A stretch of 58,151 bases of DNA. Source: Xanthobacteraceae bacterium. GTDB lineage: Bacteria > Pseudomonadota > Alphaproteobacteria > Rhizobiales > Xanthobacteraceae. The notes beneath the pieces were generated by a model. It was not told where the DNA came from. It made no database searches and saw nothing but the letters and a program-made list of their open reading frames with translations. The DNA is taken from the NCBI GenBank assembly GCA_036272395.1, contig DATAYT010000216.1, positions 1 through 58,151 of the forward strand. Direction: 5' to 3'. Shown here piece after piece: positions 8,877-9,450 of the stretch; positions within the stretch are counted from its first letter, which is position 1; each line of letters opens with the position of its first letter. The position numbers were made by a program, and so were the translations under genes.

Positions 8877-9086
8877 TCAAAACATGACGCAGCGATAAAG
8901 AAGACCAAACGTGTAAAAGGAGATCGAGTAGTCCTCGTTCATGATACTACCGTTTACGCTGTAGCTCGGGGCCTGACTTGCGGGCGGATTTAATGGAGGC
9001 GATGTACTTCCACGAGTGAAGCCGCCGCCAACATATTCGATTTCTTGACCGGTCAGAGGACATGGCGCTGCCTCAATCTTCACCAT
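8877..9086 (-). CDS. Double-glycine-leader peptide P1 (microcin/bacteriocin- or RiPP-precursor-like)
   Basis: MVKIEAAPCPLTGQEIEYVGG|GFTRGSTSPPLNPPASQAPSYSVNGSIMNEDYSISFYTFGLLYRCVMF. GAGGGGGA SD lies 7 nt before the third ATG. It is paralogous to P2, with synonymous codon differences in the conserved block. Confidence 0.6.
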   Translation of the reverse strand: MVKIEAAPCPLTGQEIEYVGGGFTRGSTSPPLNPPASQAPSYSVNGSIMNEDYSISFYTFGLLYRCVMF

Positions 9087-9184
9087 CATCATTTCCCCCT
9101 CGCGATTTTGCTGATCGCACCGTGAGTGACGAAAAGCTAATGCGCACGCACGCCATGTTAGTGACGGTTGAATGCCTTCAATAA

Positions 9185-9198
9185 TGAGAATTTTTTCA
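9185..9198. promoter_or_regulatory. Imperfect palindrome TGAGAATTTTTTCA upstream of P1 (counterpart of the 9518-9530 site)
   Basis: Same relative position as the perfect palindrome upstream of P2. It lies inside the conserved duplicated upstream block. Confidence 0.3.
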
Positions 9199-9208
9199 AT
9201 CAGAGACG

Positions 9209-9238
9209 CCGATTATCACTCCGCCGCCAGTCGCACTT
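9209..9238 (-). repeat. Duplicated copy of the pckA 3-prime end (pseudo-tail encoding EVRLAAE-stop)
   Basis: 25 of 30 nt are identical to 9541-9570. On the minus strand it reads GAA GTG CGA CTG GCG GCG GAG TGA, against GAG GTG CGG CTG GCA GCG GAG TAA in the real pckA. Confidence 0.85.
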
Positions 9239-9450
9239 CAAAACTCGAACCCTCCTAACGAATAACAGAAGGAATTGCCGCACCAGGCTCCAAAGTTAAT
9301 CCAGTTAAGGTCTGTCGGATCAGGTCCGGAGGATTTCGAGACCGTCAGAGAGCCCGAAGGTGGAGGCGATAGAGATCCCCGTGTCCCGCCGGCGACGTAA
9401 TCGGTTTCTTCGTCGGTAAGACCGCGCGCCGCTTCCATCCAGGTTGTCAT
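9238..9450 (-). CDS. Double-glycine-leader peptide P2 (microcin/bacteriocin- or RiPP-precursor-like)
   Basis: MTTWMEAARGLTDEETDYVAGG|TRGSLSPPPSGSLTVSKSSGPDPTDLNWINFGAWCGNSFCYSLGGFEF. GAGGGGAG SD lies 7 nt before ATG 9450. The longer ORF-track start at 9531 lies inside the upstream palindrome and lacks an SD. Confidence 0.65.
   Translation of the reverse strand: MTTWMEAARGLTDEETDYVAGGTRGSLSPPPSGSLTVSKSSGPDPTDLNWINFGAWCGNSFCYSLGGFEF

Follow-up and report, generated by a model that had tools for sequence, protein, structure and literature searches.

In a 58,151-nt stretch of contig DATAYT010000216.1 from a Xanthobacteraceae bacterium (hereafter the window), two small paralogous genes, P1 and P2, lie on the minus strand in the gap (8813-9547) between pckA, which encodes an ATP-dependent phosphoenolpyruvate (PEP) carboxykinase, and a gene of the class II aldolase/adducin family. 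Both are real coding genes, under purifying selection that is weaker than that on their housekeeping neighbors, and they belong to a new sequence family of a known kind, the double-glycine-leader peptides, that is found only in uncultured soil Xanthobacteraceae. In our judgment P1 and P2 are probably, if by no means certainly, precursors from which small peptides with double-glycine leaders are secreted, and so of one class with class II bacteriocins and microcins. We place our confidence no higher because we infer the cleavage, export and activity of these peptides and because no exporter is in view. On this reading, a product of 47-48 residues would be released from its leader and exported with the help of a membrane-fusion protein and an outer-membrane channel. 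The mature peptide would consist of a family-wide conserved N-terminal part, (F)TRGSxSPPLxPPxSQxP, followed by one of several unrelated aromatic or hydrophobic C-terminal ends, which usually carry two Cys that probably form a disulfide. Interbacterial antagonism would be the most likely role of such peptides, with signaling as the alternative.

Coding status, selection and family membership

The original prediction had described two paralogous small genes in an AT-rich islet, each with a strong Shine-Dalgarno sequence, and this description stands. The GC content of the gap is 52.5%, versus 62.1% for the window, and the hand counts on which the islet had been proposed (23 G+C in the 60 nt at 9161-9220 and 27 of 60 at 8881-8940) are exact, as is the spacing of 7 nt between the ribosome-binding site and the ATG of P2. 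Third-codon-position GC is 0.53 in P1 and 0.56 in P2, versus 0.78 in pckA and 0.77 in the aldolase gene. For P1, three consecutive ATGs (9092, 9089 and 9086) follow the sequence GAGGGGGA; the third had been chosen as the start, and alignment to orthologues instead gives the second, at 9089 (MMVKIE..., 70 aa), a trivial difference that leaves the gene itself in place. The block said to be shared by the two peptides, L-T-x-x-E-x-x-Y-V-x-G-G-(F)-T-R-G-S-x-S-P-P, is present in both, together with all seven of the synonymous codon differences reported within it (CTT/CTG, TAC/TAT, GTC/GTT, GGG/GGC, ACA/ACT, CGG/CGT and TCT/AGT).

Nei-Gojobori estimates for ortholog pairs from soil metagenome contigs (dS 0.18-0.41) gave dN/dS values of 0.10-0.33 for P1, and the corresponding value for P2 against its orthologue in locus L020 is 0.23; these ratios therefore indicate purifying selection on the peptides. 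For comparably diverged pairs, the 3' end of pckA and the aldolase gene gave values of 0.02-0.09. Moreover, 24 contigs of soil metagenomes, from many samples, encode an identical P2 protein in the syntenic gene order hprK, chvG, chvI, PNPOx-like gene, pckA, P2, P1, aldolase gene, tctC, FAD monooxygenase gene, two small genes and RND (resistance-nodulation-division) pump. When the hidden Markov model (HMM) of the family was run against the 1236 six-frame open reading frames (ORFs) of the window, only P1 (E 3.4e-23) and P2 (E 2.8e-20) were matched; a weak match at 57222..57335 was rejected as a low-complexity stretch within another gene. In addition, all family members examined have a G-rich ribosome-binding site in the same position. 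It is true that the region is AT-rich and intergenic-looking and that no protein family model matches it, as would be expected were P1 and P2 chance ORFs or part of a non-coding RNA region. This explanation is nevertheless extremely improbable, given that synonymous changes exceed non-synonymous ones per site, that the paralogous block differs by seven synonymous codons, that the family holds together at the protein level with 30-50% identity, and that an Rfam search of positions 8700-9700 returned no match at E <= 1. Selection thus acts on the peptide and not on an RNA, as had been proposed.

A further proposal, that the cores are under diversifying selection, does not survive comparison of orthologues. 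Among the 18 variants of the P1 ortholog group the core, PSYSVNGSIMNEDYSISFYTFGLL(C/Y)RCVMF, hardly varies, most of the variation being in the first 11 residues of the leader, and the diversifying-selection reading therefore fails within orthologues. The differences between P1 and P2 look rather like those between discrete core types, with the diversity apparently sitting between types. The P1 core does carry a Cys/Tyr polymorphism (codon 8886..8888, LLYRC), both alleles of which are common in metagenomes.

Profile searches of 1.84 billion representative proteins and of a 5.8-billion collection recovered roughly 25 small relatives of 55-84 aa, all of them from metagenomes and all unnamed or annotated as 'hypothetical protein'. 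Pfam and NCBIfam hold no model for peptides of the P1/P2 type, and with P1, P2 and P0008 as queries these databases gave nothing relevant, the sole match being a chance one to a lipoprotein family (12.6 bits); the claim that the family had gone undescribed is thus borne out. Large proteins that were also matched by the profile (P0016, P0020 and P0024-26) were set aside, since each has many matched stretches, apparently Ser/Pro-rich repeats as judged from the match pattern alone. A scan of 185,579 species-representative genomes gave one match, a single member located between pckA and the aldolase gene in a Xanthobacteraceae metagenome-assembled genome (L019). This same gap is the context of 9 of the 11 readable family loci. 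The two exceptions are L022 (913..2741, ENA ERZ27257208), in which five different double-glycine peptide genes are arrayed in tandem outside the pckA gap and beside a livG-like ABC ATPase gene, and the contig of P0048 (JGI 3300067032; DNA not readable), which has a dense run of very small genes. Multi-peptide arrays such as that of L022 are typical of the substrates of peptidase-containing ABC transporters (PCATs). A MAFFT alignment shows that family members share one layout, in which a leader with invariant L, E and G precedes a conserved stretch, (T/A/S)RGSxxPPLxxPxSQxP, and the C-terminal 15-30 residues fall into discrete, mutually unrelated types that are usually aromatic or hydrophobic.

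Leader motif, exporter link and competing explanations

C39 peptidases recognize leaders that have Leu at -12, Glu at -8, Leu at -7 and Val at -4 and that end in GG, GA or GS, and hydrophobic pockets of these enzymes accommodate the residues at -4, -7 and -12 (PMC6363468). The P1 leader (...YVGGG|F) has the expected residues throughout (L-12, E-8, I-7 and V-4), and the P2 leader (...YVAGG|T) has L-12, E-8 and V-4, in keeping with the claim that both N-termini carry residues recognized by C39 peptidases. The leaders of the relatives, of about 19-25 aa, likewise have Leu-12, Glu-8, a usually hydrophobic -7, Val-4 and GG or GA; for the 22 family members compared, -7 is hydrophobic in 17 (18 if Ala is included), position -4 holds V or I in 21, and all 22 have G at -2 and G or A at -1. 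With Val at -4, the cut would fall after AGG in P2 and after GGG in P1, where the earlier choice of the first GG does not hold and the core would begin FTRGS. In the relatives P0017 and P0048 a canonical leader (MRELKIDELERVVGG; pattern M(R)ELxxDELxRVxGG) is fused directly to a TRGS/TSGS module, which argues that TRGS... forms the N-terminus of the mature peptide.

A link to canonical double-glycine systems, indirect but strong, is also provided by a second kind of peptide, here termed type B, that shares the pckA-aldolase gap in relatives. In type-B peptides a textbook leader, MNEMRELTDAELxxVSGG, precedes a core that is hydrophobic and rich in Gly, as in MNEMRELTDDELEIVSGG and the adjoining GLGVILLLGVAMYLTGVLAVKTANWLLSS. 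Their scores fall just short of the cut-offs of TIGR03949 (21.3 against 21.5 bits) and TIGR01847 (15.5 against 15.7 bits). Alignment of the P1/P2 family with type B using hhalign gave a probability of 90.8% (E 1.2e-6) with the leaders in register. A type-B HMM run against the window ORFs ranked P2 first, if weakly (E 0.01), and did not give a significant match to P1 (E 5). Finally, a metagenome scan with the type-B leader identified an operon (L035, 230..4733) that encodes two double-glycine peptides with the leader LRELTDxELDxVCGG and Asn/Gly/Ser-rich cores, an HlyD protein (1252..2502) and a C39-ABC transporter (2466..4733; PF03412, 4.8e-34). This operon shows with what the type-B leader associates, and not that a transporter is present in the genome of the window.

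Several observations weigh against the double-glycine reading. The operon just described probably comes from an organism other than that of the window because its GC content is 52-57%. Within the leaders, Thr occupies position -7 of P2, which is normally hydrophobic, and position -15 is Pro or Ala in most of the 22 members. Curated double-glycine (TIGR01847 bacteriocin_sig and TIGR03949), Nif11 and NHLP models, which the original prediction had put forward as a check, do not match P1 or P2 even at E <= 10. The likeness that it drew to Nif11/NHLP leaders also fails: those leaders, homologous to Nif11 or to the alpha subunit of nitrile hydratase, run to about 60-80 aa, whereas the leader here has only 22-25 aa, and P1 and P2 give no NCBIfam match. 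Nor did it remark on the best-conserved segment of the family, which lies after the GG; this is unusual for leader/core peptides, and the true processing site could be further downstream. An AlphaFold2 model of P1 (9 sequences; pLDDT 53), with a short leader helix and a C-terminal helix, is uninformative. Moreover, the window P1 has the Tyr allele and so has lost one of its two core Cys, and P2 is truncated in some relatives (L020, P0002 and P0003) and frameshifted in P0028. No dedicated machinery was found either. Pfam analysis of the 30 window ORFs of at least 220 aa identified no C39-ABC exporter or HlyD-type partner, and precomputed Pfam families show no PCAT, HlyD-type partner or immunity gene within 10 kb in the syntenic contigs. 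The pckA-aldolase gap contains no plausible immunity ORF and no ORF for a small membrane protein. The only membrane-fusion protein in the window is of the RND type, and the window ORFs and syntenic flanking genes that were scanned are housekeeping or metabolic only. The earlier statement that no exporter, immunity gene or maturase is adjacent thus extends to the whole 58-kb window. Rather than a class II microcin-type cluster, the neighbors are pckA, the aldolase gene, TctC, the FAD monooxygenase and the RND pump, and these are conserved across the syntenic contigs.

Conservation that is higher after the GG than in the leader is what would be expected of a site of recognition or modification, and P1 and P2 might accordingly be precursors of peptides made by ribosomes and modified after translation (RiPPs), with a distant enzyme modifying the TRGSxSPPLxPPxSQxP stretch or the core with its many Ser, Thr and Cys (through lanthionine formation or glycosylation, for instance), and the GG cut as the last step. 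The cores are indeed Ser/Thr-rich, two or more Cys are present in 15 of 22, and there is a precedent for orphan location in Prochlorococcus MIT9313, in which one machine has 30 double-glycine substrates (cited in PMC6363468). We regard this explanation as unlikely, however, for neither the Pfam analysis of window ORFs nor the precomputed families of flanking genes in the syntenic contigs show a lanthipeptide (LanM/LanC), radical-SAM or YcaO enzyme, and the window contains no relevant glycosyltransferase; moreover, the leader is short, with no match to Nif11 or NHLP. Six of the 22 cores lack Cys altogether, implying that thioether rings are not a trait of the whole family, and with a single Cys in the window P1 there is little here that would define a class II lanthipeptide. 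The truncated and frameshifted P2 orthologues, in turn, make decay a live possibility, if one to which we assign quite a low probability: the two genes would be decaying remnants of double-glycine peptide genes, neither exported nor useful in this organism, in a gap where their presence is tolerated. Such decay would be consistent with the missing Cys of P1, with third-position GC far below that of the neighbors, with dN/dS several-fold above that of the neighboring genes and with the absence of a nearby exporter or immunity gene. Yet dN/dS stays clearly under 1, the P1 core hardly differs among its 18 variants, intact P2 is identical on 24 contigs from many samples, and the ribosome-binding sites and upstream palindromes (described below) have been kept.

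That no immunity gene is found beside any family member could also mean that P1 and P2 are exported as pheromones and not as toxins, in the manner of the double-glycine peptides with which streptococci induce competence and bacteriocins. The type-B neighbors do match the pheromone models VP1 and BlpC weakly, and the conserved palindrome suggests that expression is regulated. On the other hand, no dedicated sensor kinase is adjacent, chvG/chvI being housekeeping genes that hold the same position in related contigs whatever the cassettes, and toxins would better account for mature peptides of 30-49 aa whose ends are hydrophobic and for the several unrelated cores found at one locus. A pheromone role therefore seems to us unlikely, and we continue to favor secreted bacteriocin- or microcin-like peptides.

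Cassette structure and turnover in the pckA-aldolase gap

P2 and P1 form a tandem duplication, the repeat unit of which starts inside the last 24 nt of pckA and spans the pckA tail, a palindrome, the ribosome-binding site and the leader, similarity ending after the SPP codons. A copy of the pckA tail likewise precedes the second cassette in loci L018, L020, L021 and L029, but the boundaries of the repeat differ, the copy spanning 24 nt in the window, 122 nt in L021, and at least 37-46 nt in both L018 and L029. These differing boundaries favor independent tandem duplications or unequal crossing-over, and the alternative of site-specific insertion into the pckA tail, at a fixed att site, was set aside for that reason. 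We take a cassette to comprise a copy of the pckA tail, the palindrome, the ribosome-binding site and the peptide gene.

The palindrome, TGAGAAnTTCTCA, is located upstream of each peptide gene of the window and nowhere else in it, and a partly degenerate form (consensus ATTGAGAAATTCTCATTTT) precedes most cassettes of both peptide types in other loci. It may be an operator or promoter element. Judged by eye, its half-sites or spacing do not seem to match the consensus sequences of Irr ICE boxes, RirA IRO boxes or dif sites. A promoter and terminator scan found one weak promoter-like site, at 9241..9212 upstream of P1, and no terminator-like site between pckA and P2. Coordinates of these features, and of the genes discussed here, are collected in the table.

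Features of the peptide locus in the window and type-B peptide genes in related loci
Feature	Sequence	Coordinates	Strand	Remarks
P2	window	9238..9450	minus	ORF of a 70-aa precursor; predicted leader MTTWMEAARGLTDEETDYVAGG (22 aa) and 48-aa core TRGSLSPPPSGSLTVSKSSGPDPTDLNWINFGAWCGNSFCYSLGGFEF with 2 Cys
P1	window	8877..9089	minus	ORF of a 70-aa precursor; predicted leader MMVKIEAAPCPLTGQEIEYVGGG (23 aa) and 47-aa core FTRGSTSPPLNPPASQAPSYSVNGSIMNEDYSISFYTFGLLYRCVMF with 1 Cys
Shine-Dalgarno sequence of P2, GAGGGGAG	window	9458..9465	minus	exactly 7 nt before the ATG; read from the sequence
Shine-Dalgarno sequence of P1, GAGGGGGA	window	9094..9101	minus	from the sequence and the orthologue alignment
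Genuine 3' end of pckA, GAGGTGCGGCTGGCAGCGGAGTAA	window	9548..9571	minus	where the first duplication unit begins
Copy of the last 24 nt of pckA, GAAGTGCGACTGGCGGCGGAGTGA	window	9216..9239	minus	where the second duplication unit begins; overlap with the stop codon of P2
Palindrome, TTGAGAATTTCTCA	window	9518..9531	minus	about 70 nt upstream of the P2 start; candidate operator/promoter element; sole site in the window
Diverged copy of the palindrome, TTGAAAAAATTCTCA	window	9185..9199	minus	upstream of P1
pckA (ATP-dependent PEP carboxykinase)	window	9548..11161	minus	PF01293 on the orthologous gene; upstream same-strand neighbor of P2
Class II aldolase/adducin-family gene	window	8042..8812	plus	orthologous gene has PF00596; convergent gene that bounds the gap downstream
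Type-B peptide gene	L014	1284..1427	minus	
Type-B peptide gene	L018	1212..1355	minus	
Type-B peptide gene	L011	505..678	minus	
Type-B peptide gene	L026	1900..2082	minus	
Type-B peptide gene	L025	1339..1518	plus	
Type-B peptide gene	L024	9680..9826	plus	
Type-B peptide gene	L029	1069..1266	plus	

The cassettes differ from one relative to the next. P2 is followed by P1 in the window, and truncated P2 by P1 in L020; L014 and L018 have a type-B gene on the opposite strand and then a P1-type gene; L021 has a P1-type gene and then a type-B gene; L024 has type B followed by a family member, and L025 the reverse; L029 has a family member, type B and a second family member; and L019 has its single member. 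A copy of the pckA tail usually opens the second and later cassettes. The pckA-aldolase gap therefore appears to be a lineage-specific variable site, at which cassettes have been duplicated, swapped and lost. One might go further and suppose that the gap is a dedicated hotspot where short modules of pckA-tail repeat, palindromic operator and peptide gene duplicate and pass between strains. The P1/P2 family would then be a new type of bacteriocin that resembles a miniature polymorphic toxin, with a constant TRGSxSPPLxPPxSQxP part for uptake or receptor binding and interchangeable C-terminal 'warheads' that kill, exported through a distant PCAT in common use and functioning with no immunity gene linked to it. 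We offer this more ambitious model tentatively, as a rather unlikely one.

Comparison with known systems and neighboring features

Class II microcins and bacteriocins such as colicin V/MccV (PMC12219008, PMC10233263) resemble P1 and P2 in having a gene-encoded precursor of about 70 aa, an acidic leader of 15-25 aa that ends in GG and has the hydrophobic -4/-7/-12 pattern, and a mature peptide, predicted in the case of P1 and P2, that has 30-50 aa and often carries a pair of Cys, and in that unrelated cores are attached to one family of leaders. They differ in that P1 and P2 lack an adjacent PCAT, membrane-fusion protein and immunity gene, go unmatched by the curated leader models, come from uncultured soil Xanthobacteraceae and not from Enterobacterales or Firmicutes, and have a conserved Ser/Pro-rich stretch right after the cut site. 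Prochlorosin-type precursors of Prochlorococcus (cited in PMC6363468) also combine a shared leader with very different cores and are mostly encoded far from their machinery. Theirs, however, are long Nif11-type leaders on LanM-modified cores, whereas the P1/P2 leader is short and has no Nif11 match, and Cys is not found family-wide.

A comparison can also be drawn with the two-peptide class IIb bacteriocins of the lactobin A/cerein 7B family (TIGR03949). Type B comes within 0.2 bits of the cut-off of this model, and most related loci pair one type-B peptide with one peptide of the P1/P2 type, which hints at a two-peptide system. In contrast, P1 and P2 themselves do not match TIGR03949, and the window has two peptides of the P1/P2 type and no type-B partner. 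Pediocin-like (class IIa) bacteriocins, which have a double-glycine leader and a disulfide, combine a conserved N-terminal YGNGV box with a variable C-terminal part that is thought to set specificity. The arrangement of TRGSxSPP and a variable C-terminal part in P1 and P2 is similar, but there is no sequence similarity or immunity gene, and the conserved part is Pro-rich and probably extended, not a beta-sheet.

The current view is that double-glycine peptides occur widely among Gram-negative bacteria (PMC12219008), and in the literature we found no description of them for Alphaproteobacteria, Rhizobiales, Xanthobacteraceae or Bradyrhizobium. The roughly 25 sequences of the present family, which come from soil bacteria that are abundant and uncultured, make a concrete set that can be tested. 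Its less usual traits are the conserved stretch after the cut site, the use of a fixed gap between housekeeping genes as the site of the cassettes, and the lack of a linked exporter or immunity gene; in addition, the cassette content of this fixed chromosomal gap differs between close relatives. Should the peptides prove active, microcin-like antagonism would be extended to soil Alphaproteobacteria and new narrow-spectrum peptides would become available; should they be inactive, the locus would still illustrate, cleanly and on a small scale, how cassettes turn over by tandem duplication.

Some features of the surroundings deserve mention. From 9548 to 15281 the window has, in order, pckA, a gene similar to PNPOx/DUF2470, a response regulator and a sensor kinase (chvI/chvG-like), and hprK. 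This order fits what we take to be the arrangement in other Rhizobiales, with the peptide cassettes at its pckA end. Two conserved small genes (4946..5269 and about 5266..5505, both on the minus strand) lie between the FAD monooxygenase gene and the RND pump operon; they belong to no Pfam family, and are present in all syntenic contigs; one encodes a protein of about 79 aa, and the other a protein of 107 aa that has a long hydrophobic C-terminus. A 275-aa protein encoded at 50049..50876 (minus strand) has two stretches that match the protease-inhibitor Inh domain (PF02974), and no protease was seen among the nearby ORFs scanned. Lastly, the window and contig L001 are 99.75% identical over 12 kb, and 11 of their 30 differences fall within 35 nt at 9062..9096, which is one of the signs of relaxed constraint at the locus. 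This segment lies at the ribosome-binding site and start of P1 (MMMVKIEAAPCP in the window, MTAKIEAAPRP in L001), and the cluster of differences looks like a patch of local recombination or an indel.

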